DNA from: an uncultured bacterium
GTDB taxonomy: Bacteria > Methylomirabilota > Methylomirabilia > Rokubacteriales > DASRDR01
NCBI GenBank assembly: GCA_964416315.1
Contig: CAYQDR010000006.1
Location: forward strand, 6,540-70,539
Direction: 5' to 3'
DNA: 64,000 bases
The notes beneath the pieces were generated by a model. It saw only the letters and a program-made list of their open reading frames with translations. It was not told the DNA's origin and ran no database searches. Position 1 is the stretch's first letter; every line of letters begins with the position of its first letter. A program made the position numbers and the translations under genes. Positions 31,149 through 62,933 of the stretch are shown one piece after another.

Positions 31149-31200
31149 CGTCGACGCCCGCCCCCCGCTCCCCCGACGAGGGAGCGGGGGGCGCGCACGC

Positions 31201-54678: not shown

Positions 54679-55962
54679 TCACCACGTCAGGCGGGATTCC
54701 ACCGGCAGGCCGCGCCGCCGCCGGGCGCGCCGGGTGATCCGGGTGACCAGGAACACCAGCGCGAGGCGCGCCCGGAGCCAGAGCGGCCGGCGCAGGAACG
54801 CGGCGCCCGCGAGGACCGCCACCACGGCGTCCCGGAGGACCCGGGGCGGGCTCGGGGAGAGGAACACCTCGAGGAACGACGGGTCGTAGTAGCGGTCGAT
54901 GAAGTCGAAGAACAGCCGCGCCCCACCGGCAATCCGCCGCCGGTACCGGTCGAAGCGGGCGGCGCGGAAGTCGCCGCGGCGGAACCCCTCGACGACGACC
55001 CGCGAGGCCAGCTCGGCGGACTGCATCGCGATGTAGACGCCGGTCGAGAAGATCGGATCCACGAACGTCACCGCGTCCCCGATCGCCACGAAGCGGTCGC
55101 CGATCGCGGGCACGGTTCGGTACGAGAAGTTCGCCGCCGTCCACACCCCCGTCGTCCGGGTCGCCCGCGCGAGCCCCGCCCGGACGCTCGGACAGGCCGC
55201 GATCATCTCGTCGAAGAGGCGCTCGACGGGGACCTGGCGGGCCTTGACGACGCGCTGGTGCAGGACGCAGCCGATGCTGGCGAGGTCCCCCGCGAAGGGG
55301 ATCCACCAGAACCAGCCGTGCTCGAACAGGTAAATCCGGATGTGCCCCTCGAGCCGCCCCTCCCAGCGCTCCGCCCCGCGAAAATGGGCGAACAGGGCGA
55401 CCTTCCCCAGGCTCGGCATCGGCTCGCGCCGCCCGAGCCGGGTGGCGGTGAGGGCGTCCCGGCCGCTCGCGTCCACGAGGAACGCCGCCTCGACCCGGTA
55501 GGAGCCGGCATCGTCGGTCCGGACGTCGAGCCGCACGCGATCGGCTTCAACGGCGACCTCGGCCACCTCCGCCCCCTCGAAGACCGCCGCCCCCTGCTTC
55601 ATCGCGTGATCGAGGAGCAGCCGGTCGAAGTCGGCGCGCGGCACGTTGTAGGAGTGGTCGGCCATGGCCACGCGCGCCTGGAAGTTGAAGACCACCTGCC
55701 GGCCCTCGATCTCGTCGATGAACGCGGCGCCGTGCTTGCGGATGAAGCCTGCCGCCTCGAGGGCCGGCAGGAGGCCGAGGCGCTCGAAGAGGGGGACGTT
55801 GGCGGGCAGGAGCGACTCGCCGATGTGGAAGCGCGGGAAGCGCTCCCGCTCGAAGCACGCGACGTCGAGCCCGGCCCGCGCGAGGAGGGTCGCCGCCGTC
55901 GCGCCGGCCGGTCCGCCCCCGACCACGGCGACGTCGTACCGGCTCCGGATGCGGTCGGCCAT
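54679..55962 (-). CDS. FAD-dependent oxidoreductase, flavin halogenase / geranylgeranyl-reductase-like
   Basis: YDVAVVGGGPAGATAA, later GDAVTFVDPIFSTG FAD-binding motifs. Confidence 0.8.
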   Translation of the reverse strand: MADRIRSRYDVAVVGGGPAGATAATLLARAGLDVACFERERFPRFHIGESLLPANVPLFERLGLLPALEAAGFIRKHGAAFIDEIEGRQVVFNFQARVAMADHSYNVPRADFDRLLLDHAMKQGAAVFEGAEVAEVAVEADRVRLDVRTDDAGSYRVEAAFLVDASGRDALTATRLGRREPMPSLGKVALFAHFRGAERWEGRLEGHIRIYLFEHGWFWWIPFAGDLASIGCVLHQRVVKARQVPVERLFDEMIAACPSVRAGLARATRTTGVWTAANFSYRTVPAIGDRFVAIGDAVTFVDPIFSTGVYIAMQSAELASRVVVEGFRRGDFRAARFDRYRRRIAGGARLFFDFIDRYYDPSFLEVFLSPSPPRVLRDAVVAVLAGAAFLRRPLWLRARLALVFLVTRITRRARRRRGLPVESRLTW

Positions 55963-55973
55963 CCCGTCCCCCC

Positions 55974-56720
55974 CTACGACTCGCCGGCCGCGGCCGGGAC
56001 CCGACGGCGGCCGAGCCCATCCGCCGCGAGCCGGTGGCCGGCCTCGCGCCACAGCTCCCGGGCGAGATACCAGGCGATGCGGCCGCCGTCGGCCAGCGCG
56101 CGGAACCGGCTCGCCCGCTCCAGCGGGTAGATCCGGCGGATCGGCACCGAGACGAGCCCGAATCCCGCCCGGACGCCGCGCACCAGCGCCTCGGTCTCGA
56201 GCACGAACCCTTCCTCGCGGAGGGAGACGGCCCGCAGGAGCGCCGCCGGGTAGATGCGAAAGCCGCACTGCGTGTCGCGAACGTCGGCGCGGACGAGCCG
56301 CGTCACGAGCCAGTCGGCGGCGCGGATCGCCCCTCGGCGGAGCGAGGGCACGCGGTCGCCGTCCCCCGAAGCCAGCCGATCGCCGACCACGAGGGCCTCC
56401 GGGGCCGCCCGGGCCGCGGCGAGGAGGCCGGGCAGATCCGTCGGGTCGTGCTGGCCGTCGCCGTCGAGGGTCGCGACCGCGGTCGCGTTCCGCCGGAGCG
56501 CCTCGGCAAAGCCCCGGCGGAGGGCGGCGCCCTTGCCGGCGCGGCGCGGGCTGCGGAGCACGCAGGCCGCCCCGGCCGCCGCGGCGCGGACATCGCTCCC
56601 GTCGGTCGAGGCGTCGTCCACGACGATCACCGGGCAGACCTCGCGGAGCCGGCGGACGACGGCGCCCACGGTGGCCGCCTCGTTGAAGACCGGCACGACC
56701 GCGACCAGGCTGCTCATCAT
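55974..56720 (-). CDS. glycosyltransferase family 2
   Basis: VVPVFNE...VVDDASTDGS...DGDGQHDP GT-A motifs; ATGA overlap with upstream gene. Confidence 0.8.
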   Translation of the reverse strand: MMSSLVAVVPVFNEAATVGAVVRRLREVCPVIVVDDASTDGSDVRAAAAGAACVLRSPRRAGKGAALRRGFAEALRRNATAVATLDGDGQHDPTDLPGLLAAARAAPEALVVGDRLASGDGDRVPSLRRGAIRAADWLVTRLVRADVRDTQCGFRIYPAALLRAVSLREEGFVLETEALVRGVRAGFGLVSVPIRRIYPLERASRFRALADGGRIAWYLARELWREAGHRLAADGLGRRRVPAAAGES

Positions 56721-57979
56721 GCCGCGGCGCGCTCGCGCCGCGCCGCGCCGGCGCGCTCGAGGAGCAGGGCGACGTGACCGCCGCCCCGCGCGAGGCCGTG
56801 GACGAGCACGGTCTGGGCGGAGCGTGACCCGGCCCCGCCGTTCGTCGCGAAGGCGAAGCCCCCCCGCACCGGCGTCCGGAGGTCGGGGAGCGGTGGGAGC
56901 CGCCCGCCGCCGAGCGTCGCGACCGCCGCACCCGCCACGGCGAGCACCCCGAGGCCGGCGTGGTCGCCGGCGAGCGGCGTCAGCGCGGTGAGCCGGGGCC
57001 CGGACGCACCCGGCGTCCCGAAGACCACCCCGATCAGGTCCAGCTCGCACACGTCTTGGGTCGGGTCCCCGCTCCCCGTGAGGTAGACGGCGTCCACCTC
57101 CGCCGGCTCGCGGCCGGCTCCCGCGAGGGCGCGGCGGATCACGGCCGGCGCGCGGCGGCGCCGCGTCGGGAACCCGTGGGCCGGCGCCGGCAGGTTGCCC
57201 CAGGCCACGCCCGTGAGGTCCGCGTAGACGCGCGCGCCGCGCGCCCGCGCGCTGTCCTCGGTCTCGAGCAGCACGGTCGTGGCGCCCTCGCCGAGCACCG
57301 TGCCGTTGGCGCGTCGGTCGAACGGCCAGCACCCCTCGGGCCCCGCCCCGCGCGGCGACGTCGTCCCGAGCCGCGTCAGCTCGCGGAAGACGATCGGGCA
57401 CAGCTCGTCCACGCCGCCGGCGAGGACCGCCGGGGCCCGCCCCGCCGCGACGAGGCCGGCCGCGCGAGCCACGGCCAGCTCGCCCGCGATCCCCGCCTGG
57501 TTCACCGTCAGCATGGGCCCGCGCGCCCCCAGGTTGATCGCCGCGAGCGCGGCCATCGCGTTCATGACCGTGTTCGGGAAGATCATCGGCGAGAGCCCCA
57601 GCGGGCCGCGGGCGAGGTAGCCCCGCGCGAACTCCTCCGACGACCGGAAGTCGCCCCACTGGGAGCCCAGGACGAGCCCGAGCCCCGGCAGCGCGCCGGC
57701 CTCGACGCCCGCGTCGGCCATCGCCAGTCGGCACGCGACCACGGCGAGCTGGCACACCCGGGAGAGCCGCCGCACCTCCTCCGGGGTCAGGTAGGGCGTG
57801 AGATCCCCGACCTCGGCGCCCAGGTGGCTCCGGAGGCCCGCAGTCGGGAAGGCCCGGATCGGCCCGATGGCGGGCGTCCGCGCCAGGGCCTCCACCACGT
57901 CGGCGCCAACGCCGACGCCGAGCGCGCTGACGGTGCCGACACCGGTCACGAACACCCGATGCCTCGGCTCAGGCGGCAC
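56717..57979 (-). CDS. beta-ketoacyl synthase-like protein lacking the active-site Cys (chain-length-factor-like)
   Basis: KAS fold (RVFVTGVGTVS...) but active-site region reads TVNQAGIAGE instead of ACSSG. Confidence 0.65.
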   Translation of the reverse strand: MPPEPRHRVFVTGVGTVSALGVGVGADVVEALARTPAIGPIRAFPTAGLRSHLGAEVGDLTPYLTPEEVRRLSRVCQLAVVACRLAMADAGVEAGALPGLGLVLGSQWGDFRSSEEFARGYLARGPLGLSPMIFPNTVMNAMAALAAINLGARGPMLTVNQAGIAGELAVARAAGLVAAGRAPAVLAGGVDELCPIVFRELTRLGTTSPRGAGPEGCWPFDRRANGTVLGEGATTVLLETEDSARARGARVYADLTGVAWGNLPAPAHGFPTRRRRAPAVIRRALAGAGREPAEVDAVYLTGSGDPTQDVCELDLIGVVFGTPGASGPRLTALTPLAGDHAGLGVLAVAGAAVATLGGGRLPPLPDLRTPVRGGFAFATNGGAGSRSAQTVLVHGLARGGGHVALLLERAGAARRERAAA

Positions 57980-59192
57980 CGGTCCCCCGACGGTCCGGGA
58001 TCCGGCGGAAGAGCAGGCTGAGGTTCTGCCCGCCGAACCCGAGCGAGTTGGACATGGCGTACTCGAGGCGGACTCGCCTGGCCGCGCCCGCGACGCACTC
58101 GAACGGGATCTCGGGGTCCGGCTCGCGGAGGTTCGCGGTCGGGGGGACCACGCCGTGGACGAGCGTCAGGACCGTCGAGACCGCCTCGAGCGCGCCCGCG
58201 GCCGCCATGGTGTGGCCGATGAGCGACTTGTTCGCGGTGAGGAGGACCGACTCCGGCCCGAAGACCTTCCGGATCGCGAGCGCCTCGGCCTGGTCGTTCT
58301 GCACCGTGCCCGTCCCGTGGGCGTTGACGTGACCGACGGCGGCGGCTGGGACGCCGGCCCGCTCGAGCGCCTCCACCATCGCCCGGGCGCTCCCCTCGCC
58401 GTCGGGGTGGGGCGCGGTCATGTGATGGGCGTCGGTCGTCAGGCCGTAGCCGGCGAGCTCGACGTAGGGGCGCGCCCCGCGCGCAGCCGCGCGCGCCGCG
58501 TCCTCGAGGACGACGAACCCCGCGCCCTCGCCGAGCGACATCCCGCGGCGGTCGCGCGAGAACGGGCGGCACGGCTCCGGGTCGAGAAGCTTCAGGGCGT
58601 TGAAGCCCATGAAGCAGATCCGCGTGAGCGCATCCACGCCGCCGGCCAGCGCGATCGGGGTCACCCCGGTCTCGATGAGGTCGGCGGCGAGCCCGATCGC
58701 AGCGCTCCCCGAGCTGCACGCGAGGACCACCGTCTCCTTGGGACCGGTCGTCTGGTATCGCCGCGCCAGAAGCTCGGCGTGCGCCGTGGGCAGCACGGTG
58801 CGCAGCGCCGTCCGGCGCGCCGGGTCGTCCACGCCCTCGCGCTGGAGTCGCCAGTACCAGGTCTCGACCTCCAGCATGCCCCCGCCGATGCCGCCGACGA
58901 CGATCCCCGCCGGGGCGAGCTCGGCGCGCGTGAGGCCGGCGTCGGTGATGGCCTCGTCCGCCGCCGCGATGGCCAGCCGGTCCCCGCGCGGGCGGCGCCG
59001 GGAGGCCCGGCGGATCGCCACGTCCGGCGGCACCTCGGCGGCGATGCGCGAGCGGAACCCGTCGGTCTCGAAGAGCGTCACGGGCCCGATCACGCATCGG
59101 CCGGCGACGAGACCAGCCCAGAACGCCTCCTGCCCCAGCCCGTACGGGCTCGTGACCCCGACCCCGGTGACGACGACGCGCGGTCGAGTCAT
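57969..59192 (-). CDS. beta-ketoacyl-ACP synthase II-like (active)
   Basis: RVVVTGVGVTSP, active Cys VLACSSGSAAIG, HGTGT and SLIGHT motifs. Confidence 0.85.
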   Translation of the reverse strand: MTRPRVVVTGVGVTSPYGLGQEAFWAGLVAGRCVIGPVTLFETDGFRSRIAAEVPPDVAIRRASRRRPRGDRLAIAAADEAITDAGLTRAELAPAGIVVGGIGGGMLEVETWYWRLQREGVDDPARRTALRTVLPTAHAELLARRYQTTGPKETVVLACSSGSAAIGLAADLIETGVTPIALAGGVDALTRICFMGFNALKLLDPEPCRPFSRDRRGMSLGEGAGFVVLEDAARAAARGARPYVELAGYGLTTDAHHMTAPHPDGEGSARAMVEALERAGVPAAAVGHVNAHGTGTVQNDQAEALAIRKVFGPESVLLTANKSLIGHTMAAAGALEAVSTVLTLVHGVVPPTANLREPDPEIPFECVAGAARRVRLEYAMSNSLGFGGQNLSLLFRRIPDRRGTGAA

Positions 59193-59243
59193 TCGAGACC
59201 CCCCGCACCCCCGTCCCCTCCCACCCTTCGGGGGGAGGGGGGG
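59188..59243. repeat. G-rich 5'-UTR element copy 1 (GTCATTCGAGACCCCCCGCACCCCCGYCCCCTCCCACCCTTCGGGGGGAGGGG); contains the KAS start codon context
   Basis: tandem copy at 59277-59330, third partial at 59388-59406. Confidence 0.65.
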
Positions 59244-59276
59244 ACGCGCGGCCCTCGGCCCGCTCGCCCCCGGTGG

Positions 59277-59330
59277 GTCATTCGAGACCCCCCGCACCCC
59301 CGCCCCCTCCCACCCTTCGGGGGGAGGGGA
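59277..59330. repeat. G-rich 5'-UTR element copy 2
   Basis: see 59188-59243. Confidence 0.65.
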
Positions 59331-59421
59331 GCCCGGCGCTGCAGGCGCTCCTCGAGACGCCCAGGCGTGACGCCGCCTCCCTCATGCGGGTCCCCCGCAC
59401 CCCCGGTTGACACCGGGTGTC

Positions 59422-59709
59422 TCACAGGGCCTCTCCCCGACCCTGCTCCCGCACGAAGCGGGCGAGCGCCCCCAGCGTGGCGAAGTGCGCCTGGACATGG
59501 ACATCCTCACCCTCCTCCACCACGACCCCGAAGCGCTCCTCCAGCGCGATGGCCAGCTCGATGAAGTCGAGCGAGTCCAGGCCGAGCGATCCCTCGACCC
59601 CCTTGGGCAACGGCGTCTCCGGGGAAATCGCCGCGACCGTCTTCGGGTCGAACCGAAGCCGCTTGACGACGATGTCTCGAAGCTCGTCGAGGATCGCCCG
59701 CTCGTCCAT
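59422..59709 (-). CDS. acyl carrier protein
   Basis: 95 aa with LGLDSLDFIELA phosphopantetheine-attachment motif; GAGGAGG SD. Confidence 0.85.
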   Translation of the reverse strand: MDERAILDELRDIVVKRLRFDPKTVAAISPETPLPKGVEGSLGLDSLDFIELAIALEERFGVVVEEGEDVHVQAHFATLGALARFVREQGRGEAL

Positions 59710-59730
59710 CCGTCCTCCTCGGATTCCCGG

Positions 59731-60705
59731 TTACAAGGGCCAGAGCATCGCCGCGTAGTCCTGGCGCCACGCCGCCGTCGCGAGGCACGGGCCTTCGAGG
59801 CCCGACGCCCGCGCCCGGGCGAGGCCGATCAGGGGTCCGGACGCGAACGCCTCGCCGAGGTCGCCCACTCCCACGCGCGTCGCCGCCACGCCGCGCGCGG
59901 CGAGCGCCGCGGCCTCGAAGCGCCCGGGTCCGCGCCCCGGGACGCACCCGGCCAGCGTCCGCGGCCGACGATCCCGGAGGACCGCCTCGAGCACGGCGGC
60001 GACGGACCCGGACGCCTCCCGTCCCGACGCGGCGGCAGACGCCCAGGCGAGCGGCTCGCCCCCGCCGGGCTCGACCAGGAGGCACGCGGCGCTCTCGATC
60101 AGAGGCCCGGCGTAGAGGCGCCGCGCGCGGGTGAAGAGGTCCCACACCTCGTGCACGGCCTCGACGGCCAGGACGAGGACGCGGTCCGCCACGCCGTCCG
60201 CGAGCCAGCGCGCGGCGACCCAGAGCCCCTGGAGGGCGGTCGGACCGCCCCCCATGAGGTTCACGTACGGCCCGCGGATCCCGTACTCGATCGTGACCTC
60301 CGCGGGCACGGCGCTCGGCGCCGTGTACGGGAAGTGGAGCGTCGTCGAGCCCTCGTCCTCGAGGAATGCCCGGTTCGCCGACGCGTACGCGGTCGCGCTC
60401 GCGTACAGCACCCCCGTGCGGGGGCCCGCCAGCGCCGCCGTGTCGAGCCCCGCGTCCCGGGCCGCCGCCCGGACGGCCGCGACGCCGAGGAGGCACTCGC
60501 GGGTCGCGCGCCGGAAGCGCTCCCCGGCGAACGCGGGCGTGGGCACGGCAACCAGGCCGCGCGCCCCCTCGGGACCCGCGGCGTCGGGCGCCGCCAGGCC
60601 CTCGCCCCAGCCCGTGAGGATGCCGGCGCCGCGGATCACCGGGGCCGGCGCCTGGGCGACCGGCACCGCGTGACGGACCTCGCGCTCGACGGTCGCCGGC
60701 GTCAT
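59731..60705 (-). CDS. beta-ketoacyl synthase-like protein lacking active-site Cys (CLF-like partner)
   Basis: KAS-fold similarity; active-site position reads LYASATAYASA; ATGA overlap with upstream KAS. Confidence 0.55.
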   Translation of the reverse strand: MTPATVEREVRHAVPVAQAPAPVIRGAGILTGWGEGLAAPDAAGPEGARGLVAVPTPAFAGERFRRATRECLLGVAAVRAAARDAGLDTAALAGPRTGVLYASATAYASANRAFLEDEGSTTLHFPYTAPSAVPAEVTIEYGIRGPYVNLMGGGPTALQGLWVAARWLADGVADRVLVLAVEAVHEVWDLFTRARRLYAGPLIESAACLLVEPGGGEPLAWASAAASGREASGSVAAVLEAVLRDRRPRTLAGCVPGRGPGRFEAAALAARGVAATRVGVGDLGEAFASGPLIGLARARASGLEGPCLATAAWRQDYAAMLWPL

Positions 60706-61919
60706 GCCGCCGCCAGGACCAGGGCGGCGTTGCAGCCGCCGAAGCCGAGGGAGGTGGACAGGCTGACGCGGGGCCGGTGGCGCCGCGCCTGGTTCGGGAC
60801 GCAGTCGAGGTCGCAGCCCGGGTCGGCTTCGCCGTAGTTGAGGGTCGGCGGCACCTGGCCGTGACGGCCCGCGAGGAGGCACATGATCGCCTCCAGCGTG
60901 GCCGCCGCCCCCATCGTGTGGCCCAGGTGCGCCTTGATCGAATTCACCGGGATCGCATACGCGTGCCGCCCGAGGACGCGCTTGAGCACGTCGGTTTCGA
61001 CCCGGTCACTGACGGGCGTCCCCGTCCCGTGCGCGCTGACGAGGTCGACCGCCTCGGGGCCCAGCCCCGCCTCGCTGAGCGCCTGGCGAACCGCCAGCTC
61101 GAGGCCGCGCCCCTCGGGGTCCGGCGCCGTGATGTGGGCGCCATCGGCGGTGCTCGCGTGGCCGAGCAGGAGCCCGAGCGGCGCCCCGTGGCCGCGCCCC
61201 CGGGCCGCCGCGGGCCGCTCCATGACGACGACCCCTGCCCCCTCGCCCAGGAGGATGCCGCTGCGCCGCCGGTCGAAGGGCCGCACCTCGTCGCGCGTGA
61301 GCGAGCGCAGCACGTTGAAGCCCCGCTGGACGAAGCGGCAGAGGACGTCCACGCCGCCCGCGAGCGCCCAGTCGGCGCGGCCGGCCCGGAGGAGGTCGGC
61401 TGCGACGCCGAGGCTGGTCGCCCCCGACGCGCAGGCCGTCGAAACCGTGAGGACCGGACCCGCCGCGCCGAGGGCGTGCGCGAGGTTCCAGGTGGGCCCG
61501 TCGTAGAGCGACCCGAGCAGGGCTCGGACGCCGCCGTGACCGCGCAGCGCGCGTCCCGCGTCATCGATCCCGCCGAGCGCGGTGCCGATCACGACGGCCA
61601 CGCGCGCCGGATCCGGGAACCCACCAGCGAATCCGGCGCTCGTCAGCGCCTCCTCCGCTGCGCGCCGGAGGAAGCGGGAGGCACGGCAGGCGGGCGGCCG
61701 GCGTCCGTCGCGGGCGAGCGGCCCGAGGCCGCGCCCCTCGCGCGCGGCCAGCTTCTTCACCTCCCCAGCGCGCCCCACGCGCAGGTCGGCGACCGGGAAG
61801 CGCTCGATCTGCGAGATCCCGGAGACACCCGTGATGAGGCCCGCCCAGAACGCGTCGAGGTCATGCCCGATCGGGCTGACGACACCGGCGCCGGTGATGG
61901 CGATCGGCTCAGCCGCCAT
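60702..61919 (-). CDS. beta-ketoacyl-ACP synthase (active)
   Basis: IAITGAGVVSP, active Cys VSTACASGATS, SAHGTGT, KAHLGHT. Confidence 0.85.
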   Translation of the reverse strand: MAAEPIAITGAGVVSPIGHDLDAFWAGLITGVSGISQIERFPVADLRVGRAGEVKKLAAREGRGLGPLARDGRRPPACRASRFLRRAAEEALTSAGFAGGFPDPARVAVVIGTALGGIDDAGRALRGHGGVRALLGSLYDGPTWNLAHALGAAGPVLTVSTACASGATSLGVAADLLRAGRADWALAGGVDVLCRFVQRGFNVLRSLTRDEVRPFDRRRSGILLGEGAGVVVMERPAAARGRGHGAPLGLLLGHASTADGAHITAPDPEGRGLELAVRQALSEAGLGPEAVDLVSAHGTGTPVSDRVETDVLKRVLGRHAYAIPVNSIKAHLGHTMGAAATLEAIMCLLAGRHGQVPPTLNYGEADPGCDLDCVPNQARRHRPRVSLSTSLGFGGCNAALVLAAA

Positions 61920-62006
61920 GATCGTCAGACAGGGGGGAGCCCCCTCCGGGGGACCCCCTCCCTGACCCCTCCACCTGGGGGTCGCACGCTCGTGCGTTGC
62001 CCTCGC

Positions 62007-62933
62007 TCACGGCCGCTCCGAACTCCACACGTCGAAGAAGTTGAACCACTGCTCCCAGTACCCCGTGACGTAGCGCTCGAGCACGGTGACCGCGCGCGCC
62101 AGGCCCCGCTCCTCCTCGCCCCGCCTCACGTCGAACGCGGCCTCGACACACAGCCGGTACCGCCCTCCCTCGTCGAGGACACAAAACGCGGGCACGACCG
62201 GCACGCCCGCCGCTCCGGCCATGACGAACGGCCCGAGGGGGAACGCCGCCGCCGCGCCGAAGAAGGGGACGCGCCGGTCACCGCGGTCGCCCATCGCCCG
62301 GTCCATCTGGAAGGCGACGAACTCGCCCCGCCTGAGCGCGGCGACGAGCTCCACCGAGACGAGGGGGCTCGTCCGACGGACGGCGCGCAGCCCGCTATCC
62401 GGGTCGCCGTCCAGGATGGCCGCGACCCCCGGCTCTTGCTCCGGGGCCATGACGAGGTGCACGCGCCGACCGAAGGTGGCCAGCAGCCGGCCCGCGAGCT
62501 GCCAGTTGCCGAGGTGCGCCGTGACGAACACGCTGCCGCGCTCCCGCGTGAGCAACTCCCGGGCCGGCTGGTCGCACTCCACTCTGGCCACGTGTTGCCA
62601 AAGCTTCGCCGCGGGCTCGCGGTTCAGCGACAGGAGGTCGGCGAAGCACACGGCGAAACGCTGGAAGACCCGACGCACGGCCGCGTCCAGCCAGGCCCCG
62701 TCGCGCCCCGGGTGCACGCGCGCGAGGTTTCGGCCGACCGCGGCCCGCTCCACCGCGAGGCACGGGGCGAGGACGCGCGCCGCTCCCGCGGCAAGCCACC
62801 GCCGAGCCCGGCGCGGCAAGCGCGGGGCGGTCGCGAGCGCCAGCCGGTAGTAGCTTGGGCGATTGTAGGAGTGGGCATACCAGCGCGCCGGCGACGGAGT
62901 CGGCGGGGCGGCGGGCGGCGCGGCTACGCTCAT
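62007..62933 (-). CDS. lysophospholipid/lipid A-type acyltransferase (LpxL/HtrB family)
   Basis: family-like sequence incl. VFVTAHLGNWQL acyltransferase HX4D-region analogue. Confidence 0.65.
   Translation of the reverse strand: MSVAAPPAAPPTPSPARWYAHSYNRPSYYRLALATAPRLPRRARRWLAAGAARVLAPCLAVERAAVGRNLARVHPGRDGAWLDAAVRRVFQRFAVCFADLLSLNREPAAKLWQHVARVECDQPARELLTRERGSVFVTAHLGNWQLAGRLLATFGRRVHLVMAPEQEPGVAAILDGDPDSGLRAVRRTSPLVSVELVAALRRGEFVAFQMDRAMGDRGDRRVPFFGAAAAFPLGPFVMAGAAGVPVVPAFCVLDEGGRYRLCVEAAFDVRRGEEERGLARAVTVLERYVTGYWEQWFNFFDVWSSERP

Follow-up and report, generated by a model that had tools for sequence, protein, structure and literature searches.

A 229-nt gap between an acyl carrier protein (ACP) gene and a downstream ketosynthase (KS) gene, on the minus strand of the 64-kb stretch of Rokubacteriales DNA analysed here (hereafter the window), is best read as a three-unit array of a dispersed family of intercistronic repeats of the Rokubacteria/Methylomirabilota. 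The family resembles the interspersed repetitive units of mycobacteria (MIRUs), and the array would have been gained in the source lineage at a site where the two genes formerly overlapped by GTGA. We give this reading a probability of about 0.65. It is carried by the anatomy of the units, by the dispersal of the same module in front of unrelated genes, by the existence of filled and empty versions of the same gene junctions, and by a reading-frame rule that most units follow. Because both filled and empty sites exist, the element is probably mobile, and the open reading frame (ORF) that bridges the gap would, as far as its sequence allows one to judge, be translated and couple the KS gene to the ACP gene.

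The three units of the ACP–KS gap

The gap contains what the earlier note on this DNA had recognised in it, namely two long direct repeats 89 nt apart, a third partial copy and a start-codon context within the repeats. The long copies (53 nt each, at 59188-59240 and 59277-59329, 89 nt from start to start) are identical at 52 of 53 positions, the second giving a blastn E-value of 1e-23, and blastn found no further copy of the 53-nt repeat in the window. The third copy comprises only the 14-mer CCCCCGCACCCCCG at 59392-59405. This 14-mer has three exact occurrences, and when at most one mismatch is allowed five matches against 0.43 expected by chance, a count that no shuffle reached. Both long copies finish, at their minus-strand 3' end, in GGTCTCGAATGAC, and only the proximal copy precedes the KS ORF. 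The region is not the simple tandem duplication that had been supposed: the variable stretches before the two copies (36 and 52 nt) share no relatedness, and Tandem Repeats Finder (TRF) reports no 89-nt period. What had been overlooked is the division of the gap into three units, each ending in ATGA, and the presence of a 26-nt hairpin in each long copy.

Read on the minus strand, a long copy consists of the hairpin, a 2-nt linker, a G-rich box (G-box, GGGGGUGCGGGGGG), the spacer UCUCGA and AUGAC. The hairpin is CCCCUCCCCCC-GAA-GGGUGGGAGGGG, with folding energies of -24.6 and -26.2 kcal/mol in the two copies (z about -2.5). The features of the region are the following.

ACP gene: 59422-59709, minus strand; Pfam PP-binding match; its TGA stop (59424-59422) forms the left boundary, read as GTGA at 59425-59422.
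Unit 3, shortened, 40 nt: 59386-59425, minus strand; GTGA, 5' motif, G-box, ACCCGC, then ATGA, without the large hairpin.
5' motif of unit 3, GACACCCGGTGTCAAC: 59421-59406, minus strand; small GACAC/GUGUC hairpin, common to the carriers named below and placed directly after NTGA.
G-box of unit 3, CGGGGGTGCGGGGG: 59405-59392, minus strand; third copy of the G-box.
Unit 2, full, 104 nt: 59282-59385, minus strand; from the ATGA at 59385 to the base preceding the ATGA at 59281.
Parts of unit 2: minus strand; variable stretch of 52 nt, hairpin 59329-59304, G-box 59301-59288, spacer TCTCGA 59287-59282.
ORF of unit 2, 35 codons: 59385-59278, minus strand; its TGA overlaps the next ATG.
Unit 1, full, 89 nt: 59193-59281, minus strand; starts at the ATGA at 59281.
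Parts of unit 1: minus strand; variable stretch of 36 nt, hairpin 59240-59215, G-box 59212-59199, spacer TCTCGA 59198-59193.
ORF of unit 1, 30 codons: 59281-59189, minus strand; its TGA overlaps the KS ATG.
Bridging ORF, 78 codons, stop-free: 59189-59425, minus strand; begins with a GTG that overlaps the ACP stop (GTGA) and ends with a TGA that overlaps the KS start (ATGA).
Second KS gene: 57969-59192, minus strand, with its ATG at 59192; Pfam ketoacyl-synt N and C domains.
G-quadruplex motif GGGTGGGAGGGGACGGGGG, copy 1: 59208-59226, minus strand; the equivalent in copy 2 is at 59297-59315.

Since ATGAC, that is, the KS ATG and the start of codon 2, falls within repeat copy 1, the KS start codon is supplied by the insert. 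The KS N-terminus reads MTRPRVVVTG (MT-RPRVVVTG) in the window, VSARGRPRVVVTG (VSARG-RPRVVVTG) in contig L003 and VSGARVVVTG in L004 (L-numbers denote the contigs compared). The 229-nt region is base-for-base identical in three assemblies (the window, JGI contig L001 and the separate ENA k141 contig L002), with the same number of units in each, and its identity in the JGI and k141 contigs shows it to be real sequence rather than an artefact of one assembly. No further relative with a KS more than 90% identical was found. The genes around the gap form a minus-strand series in the order lipid-A-type acyltransferase, KS, chain-length-factor (CLF)-like protein, ACP, the gap, KS, CLF-like protein, GT2, halogenase-like flavoprotein and MacB/ABC.

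Dispersed copies, empty sites and the frame rule

Outside the window, the module (C/G hairpin, G-box, 5-6 nt, AUGA) recurs between co-directional genes in Rokubacteria/Methylomirabilota contigs. The scan of a genome collection from which this follows used the hairpin pattern alone, which is generic, GC-rich hairpins from many phyla being among its matches. Among the matches listed, the complete module occurred only in Rokubacteria/Methylomirabilota records and in one contig labelled uncultured Actinomycetes (L060). At least four contigs (L014, L064, L068 and L096) of a single metagenome-assembled genome (MAG; SMAG_U4595) carry the module, and the ACP–KS junction of that same MAG (L009) is empty. 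Further carriers from the genome scan are L103, L060 and the variants L030 and L093, and a metagenome scan with a pattern of the 3' arm and G-box (120 matches) gave about seven genuine members, among them L155, L164, L165 (two copies), L174 and L188. About 90% of those 120 matches (numbered within L114-L233) were poly-G runs typical of two-colour sequencer artefacts, and G-rich pattern scans of the metagenome contig collection call for a poly-G filter.

In nine members the start codon of a long ORF lies 5-6 nt after the G-box, and a co-directional upstream ORF ends 22-114 nt before the hairpin. Eight of the 10 downstream proteins scanned (variants L030 and L093 included) have clear and unrelated Pfam identities (GFO/IDH/MocA oxidoreductase, molybdopterin oxidoreductase, amidohydrolase, PAP2, LivH-type permease, HisG, [2Fe-2S] subunit and homoserine dehydrogenase), and in several of them the Pfam domain begins within the first 12 residues. 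Every copy in the family is direct, in the same orientation as its genes, and tandem arrays are found in the window (3 units), L165 (2), L188 (2), L060 (2 and a partial one) and L103 (2; TRF period 96, 97% match).

Other hairpins met in these scans are of a different standing. The family profile gives 32.7 bits to a hairpin with AGGGGTGAGGGGTCCCGAGTAAC behind it in a Fimbriimonadaceae MAG (L110:3770-3822), possibly a distantly related module from another phylum. Matches in Candidatus Accumulibacter contiguus, which have the same hairpin as the members, were rejected as a different, MITE-like (miniature inverted-repeat transposable element) repeat of about 130 nt (L016:7045, L018:5692, L020:956 and L023:4905), in which a CCCCTCCCCCC...GGGGGGAGGGG hairpin is followed by TTGGGGGAGAGGGGAAACGGTCATGAC and, downstream, by an inverted GTCATGACCGTTT. 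Calidithermus chliarophilus (L037, L051, L074, L095, L105) has at least five copies of a hairpin CCCCTCCCTCCGGC(C/T)GGAGGGAGGGG, flanked by runs of GCAAGAC/GCAAAAC heptamers on one side and GCTGA(C/G)GG-type repeats on the other, which is another repeat family.

We also compared the ACP–KS junction itself among relatives. The named best protein matches to the window KS are Methylomirabilota/Rokubacteria MAG proteins, and clusters of the same gene order were fetched from relatives, giving ten homologous clusters besides the window. The repeat module is absent from the ACP–KS junction in all ten, and a 229-nt gap was seen in the window only. The junctions, with the identity of each KS to that of the window, are as follows.

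L003, KS 90% identical: gap of 16 nt.
L004-7, KS 85% identical: GTGA overlap.
L009, KS 79% identical: GTGA overlap.
L008, KS 79% identical: gap of 73 nt.
L234/235, KS 77% identical: junction rearranged.
L236, KS 76% identical: GTGA overlap.
L237-9, KS 76% identical: gap of 31 nt.
L240, KS 72% identical: gap of 7 nt.

The closest relative, L003, retains GTGAGCCACCCGGTGTCC, which matches the 5' motif of the window and is followed directly by CGACCGCGCGTC. It thus reads GTGAGCCACCCGGTGTCCGCCCGGGG-CCGACCGCGCGTC where the window reads GTGAGACACCCGGTGTCAACCGGGG, about 205 nt, and then CGACCGCGCGTC. This suggests a gain of the array before the window and L003 diverged, followed by the loss of most of it in L003. 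A second filled and empty pair, with the roles reversed, is provided by the junction of the GT2 and flavoprotein genes, which is filled in L003 (3709-3828) and empty in the window (an 11-nt gap, 55963-55973). The L003 contig stops within the hairpin of its post-GT2 unit, a typical assembly break at a repeat.

Among the seven relatives that keep the ACP–KS order, three have a direct 4-nt overlap, three have a gap with a bridging ORF, and L003 has neither. At the gapped junctions other than that of L003, the window included, all four bridging ORFs are stop-free and overlap both neighbours by 4 nt, with periods of 11, 35, 77 and 233 nt, the last being that of the window. The three shorter inserts (73 nt at L008:3924-4004, 31 nt at L237:9966-10004 and 7 nt at L240:9990-10004) are unrelated in sequence and have NTGA on both sides; their periods (77, 35 and 11 nt) are all 2 mod 3. 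As the junctions of the relatives other than L003, and that of the window, show either 4-nt overlaps or stop-free bridges, the sequences suggest that translational coupling of ACP to KS is under selection. The cluster as a whole (window about 54679-62933, minus strand; L001, L004, L009 and L234-L240) is conserved in Rokubacteria/Methylomirabilota and comprises genes for DUF8321/8322, lipid-A-type acyltransferase, KS, CLF-like protein, ACP, KS, CLF-like protein, GT2, halogenase-like flavoprotein, MacB/FtsX with an ABC ATPase, and FAD oxidoreductase; the clusters of some relatives also hold CDP-alcohol phosphatidyltransferase, LPG-synthase-TM and radical SAM genes. The cluster appears to encode an aryl-polyene-like pathway or one for an unusual lipid.

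The boundaries of the units can be placed by means of the 5' motif of a sub-family, GACACCC(T/G)GTGTCAAC (RNA form GACACCC(U/G)GUGUCAAC), carried by the window (59421-59406), L003, L064, L096, L164, L165 and L188. As this motif stands directly after ATGA or GTGA, full units must span from NTGA to ATGA. A full unit is about 100 nt long and comprises NTGA, the 5' motif in some cases, a 26-28-nt C/G hairpin, the G-box, a 5-6-nt spacer and AUGA; the flanking duplication is 3-4 nt (TGA/ATGA) in most units. Twelve units have both their boundaries defined; in nine of them the period is 2 mod 3 and the corresponding frame is stop-free, with periods of 89 nt, 101 nt (twice), 104 nt (five times, of which outside the window in L165, twice, L188b and L030) and 110 nt. 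With such a period, an ORF that starts at the left NTG ends at a TGA overlapping the next ATG.

A unit of this kind would rebuild what its insertion disturbs. At its left end, NTGA would preserve either the stop codon of the upstream gene or the former start codon; at its right end, AUGA would provide the start codon of the downstream gene; the G-box would lie at Shine-Dalgarno distance from the start so supplied, and a length held at 2 mod 3, stop-free in that frame, would provide a relay ORF between the two. With a stop, a start, a Shine-Dalgarno-like G-run and a relay ORF restored, the insertion would be tolerated with little harm. G-runs also precede the starts of neighbouring genes of the cluster (for example TAGGGGGGGACGGGATG). 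A ribosome that ends the ACP ORF would restart at the overlapping GUG, read the 78 codons, melting the hairpins or G-quadruplexes on its way, halt at the UGA inside AUGA and restart on the KS ORF; the internal AUGs of units 2 and 1 might admit further ribosomes.

Folding of the unit and the competing explanations

Several observations weigh against the MIRU-like reading. Three units break the frame rule (L188a, 102 nt; L103, 96 and 76 nt), stop-free frames easily arise by chance in such G/C-rich sequence, and unit length is shared by descent, so that few independent events underlie the frame statistics. The left ATGA and the upstream stop are in some cases apart: in L165 the ATGA lies 59 nt downstream of the stop, in L030 about 19 nt. 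In L014 (2735-2890) about 38 nt of the 3' end of the upstream gene (GCCGGCCAGACCGTCATGCTGCGGGTCGAGGCGCAGTA) stands on both sides of the element, before a thrC-like start, and in L103 (2561-2754) a 96-nt tandem duplication (2.0 copies, 97% match; 0 mod 3) comprises the element and about 35 nt of the upstream gene end; with flanking duplications as variable as these, a single target duplication of fixed length is no explanation. Neither a repeat search nor inspection of the full units found terminal inverted repeats joining the unit ends (GACACCC... and ...CCCGAATGA), and no transposase or copying mechanism was identified, with no transposase in view. Lastly, nhmmer with a family profile added no copy, either in the window or in the 97 kb of sequence from seven related loci; in the source genome a single locus is visible in 64 kb.

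The most elaborate competitor is a sharper form of the idea put forward in the earlier note, which saw in the gap a G-quadruplex (G4)-prone element with competing folds. In its sharper form, an RNA switch serving the host would pass between a hairpin that leaves the G-box free and a G4 that hides it, the C-rich arm pairing with the G-box to close the structure, so that KS translation would answer to potassium, temperature or a helicase. The propensity is clear: both copies hold a canonical motif, GGGTGGGAGGGG(A/G)CGGGGG, on the minus strand (59226-59208 and 59315-59297), with four G-tracts of at least G3 and loops of 1-7 nt, and no other G4Hunter peak in the window reaches theirs (2.72 and 2.88), which bears out the earlier expectation for G4 predictors on this strand. 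When G4 energies are included, ViennaRNA predicts for all 15 aligned modules a G4 (GGG-U-GGG-A-GGG...GGG) closed by the helix of the C-rich arm and the G-box, at 4-24 kcal/mol below the plain hairpin; this predicted fold would hide the Shine-Dalgarno-like G-box, which the hairpin leaves free, and it supports the notion of a G4-prone transcribed strand with competing folds. The U and A that split the G-tracts are invariant. Through the U, each of the 9 family hairpins of the genome scan contains a C·U mismatch; of 98 similar hairpins belonging to other taxa, 80 are paired at the equivalent position. RNA G-quadruplexes (rG4s) have moreover been reported to inhibit translation in transcripts of Mycobacterium tuberculosis (PMC10801317).

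Against a switch stands the distribution of the module. The earlier note had proposed a regulator of the second KS lying in its 5' untranslated region, but the module is missing from the ten homologous clusters sampled, so that it is not a conserved control of the pathway, and elsewhere it precedes unrelated genes (hisG, hom, a livH-type permease gene, an oxidoreductase gene and others). The G4 is a product of the energy model, the invariant U and A are explicable by recent common descent, and a covariation test on the hairpin found no compensatory change at any pair, the pairs being invariant and the test thus uninformative. An Rfam 15 scan (E-value mode, 59000-59600) returned only sub-threshold chance matches; the best of them, NiCo-AnGGAG at 59417-59513 (minus strand), scored 21.3 bits against a gathering threshold of 64.5 (E = 0.053), lies in the ACP coding sequence and is taken as chance. 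A riboswitch or another known cis-regulatory RNA was rejected on these grounds, and with it the riboswitch-like role suggested earlier. We consider the RNA switch unlikely. What the earlier note had named as fatal to its idea is found in part: the homologous clusters are without the element, and yet the repeat is not unique to one assembly.

One might speculate further and combine the two ideas, in that a start-codon-seeking mobile family would carry a portable translation cassette (Shine-Dalgarno sequence, start codon and relay ORF) together with the RNA toggle between a hairpin with a free Shine-Dalgarno sequence and a G4 clamped by the helix of the C-arm and G-box that hides it, so that each insertion would be a G4-dependent translational switch. 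Structured G-rich DNA might then drive the spread of the family by template switching at stalled replication forks, which would account for the variable flanking duplications in L014 and L103. We regard this combination as a doubtful proposition.

Improbable to a like degree is an element of the repetitive extragenic palindromic (REP) type, whose hairpins would protect the ACP message or mark a cleavage site and so set the ratio of ACP to KS, the small ORFs being incidental. The hairpins are strong and lie just downstream of a gene within an operon, the gap in its entirety is more stably folded than shuffled sequence (z = -3.2), and REP elements are known intercistronic regulators, to judge from references given in PMC3184786. 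Another C/G hairpin between co-directional genes occurs in the window at 31150-31200. Such an element, however, does not explain why the copies are co-oriented with the genes in direct arrays and not in the inverted pairs typical of REP and bacterial interspersed mosaic elements (BIMEs), why the unit includes a downstream start at a fixed 5-6 nt, which a decay barrier does not need, or why lengths follow the 2 mod 3 rule; and a scan for promoters and terminators found nothing, including no terminator-like site. The hairpin at 31150-31200 (minus strand) is unrelated in sequence to the family, has a G4Hunter score of 2.04 and is laid out as TAG-GCGTGCGCG-CCCCCCGCTCCC-TCGT-CGGGGGAGCGGGGGG-CGGGCGTCGACG-ATG; hairpins of C-runs and G-runs within operons may be a general habit of the source genome.

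It is very unlikely that the 78-codon ORF, or the ORFs of 30-35 codons, encode a functional peptide of the cluster. The bridging ORF is stop-free and overlaps both neighbours in the style of an operon gene, but its GC at codon positions 1, 2 and 3 (0.84, 0.73 and 0.76) is unlike that of the neighbouring genes (about 0.75, 0.52 and 0.93), which leaves it without a coding signature. The two repeat copies fall in different frames of this ORF, and in the family the reading frame across the hairpin shifts between 5-nt and 6-nt spacers, so that the peptide is not conserved; nor is the ORF present in the homologous clusters. If the unit ORFs matter, their sequences suggest that the act of translation, not the product, would count. 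Least credible is a local duplication or assembly artefact without wider meaning: the repeats are short and G/C-rich, and assemblers struggle with such sequence, as the break of the L003 contig inside a hairpin illustrates, but three assemblies including the separate k141 contig agree, 53-nt repeats at 89-nt spacing are presumably shorter than a typical sequencing read, the stretches before the copies are unrelated, and many unrelated contigs carry the module and arrays like this one.

Other identities were rejected on their anatomy. The family is not of the REP/BIME class, its copies being direct and co-oriented and its unit including ATGA, and it is not a MITE, terminal inverted repeats not having been found in the full units. 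An origin of the IS200/IS605 or REP/RAYT type, considered for the subterminal hairpins and the conserved mismatch, is unsupported, as nothing separates the left hairpin from the boundary and no transposase was seen. A CRISPR-like array, with a 53-nt repeat and a 36-nt spacer, does not agree with two full copies only, a start codon within the repeat and a family placed at gene starts.

Meaning and comparison with known systems

In the literature that we found, MIRUs are the only repeats described as start-codon inserters that are kept harmless by a translationally coupled internal ORF, and we found no description of elements of such a type from Rokubacteria in the open-access literature. If our reading is true, the strategy of insertion at start codons arose more than once, an independent Rokubacteria family having reached the same architecture. 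The family would then offer a second system in which to study the movement of such elements and the reason for the reading-frame rule, as well as natural "bicistronic design" parts for high-GC hosts. There is also a caution for annotation: long G-rich gaps in Rokubacterial biosynthetic operons would be repeat insertions rather than pathway-specific regulators, and gene starts beside such repeats would come from the element.

By architecture the family appears to work like the MIRUs, an assignment by analogy that does not file it in the MIRU sequence family. To our knowledge there is no sequence resemblance between it and the MIRU consensus. The units are similarly short, from tens to about 100 nt, and often stand in direct tandem arrays (40, 104 and 89 nt in the window, 101-110 nt in others); they are dispersed between co-directional operon genes and oriented with them; they contain inverted repeats rich in GC and end in 4-nt direct repeats; and both filled and empty sites occur. 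MIRUs are likewise intercistronic and co-transcribed; they measure 40-100 bp, contain GC-rich inverted repeats as well as tetranucleotide direct repeats, and are described from filled and empty sites (PMC3184786). They are summarised as mobile elements that insert at start codons and whose internal ORF is coupled at -4 (PMC12548453, citing Supply 1997), and the internal ORF overlapping the flanking stop and start by 4 nt, which the Rokubacteria family shares, is taken in that summary as a start-codon insertion with little effect on expression. The differences are the host (Methylomirabilota/Rokubacteria instead of Mycobacterium), a much stronger C/G hairpin with a canonical G-quadruplex motif, and a G-run Shine-Dalgarno sequence at a fixed 5-6 nt from the start that it supplies. 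MIRU typing by variable number of tandem repeats is built on variation in unit number between strains; among the window, L001 and L002, which are identical, no such variation was seen.

The REP and BIME elements of enterobacteria and pseudomonads are also imperfect palindromes, short and GC-rich, which are dispersed and in many cases lie within operons, with possible effects on mRNA stability and downstream translation. They occur in both orientations or as inverted pairs and without a downstream start codon, whereas the Rokubacteria units are co-oriented and direct, run exactly from NTGA to ATGA and follow a reading-frame rule. The rG4 inhibitors of M. tuberculosis PE/PPE transcripts (PMC10801317) have in common with the window G-tracts on the mRNA strand, a high-GC organism and predicted stable G4s near a translated region; in the window, where the G4 is a prediction, the G-tracts, which belong to a dispersed repeat, double as one arm of a perfect-complement hairpin. 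A parallel to the relay ORF is offered by the synthetic bicistronic design (BCD) and short upstream ORFs (PMC12548453), in which a leader cistron holds the downstream Shine-Dalgarno sequence and its stop overlaps the downstream start, so that the translating ribosome unfolds structure at the start site. BCD leaders are engineered and single-copy, whereas the Rokubacteria element is natural, repeated and apparently self-spreading.

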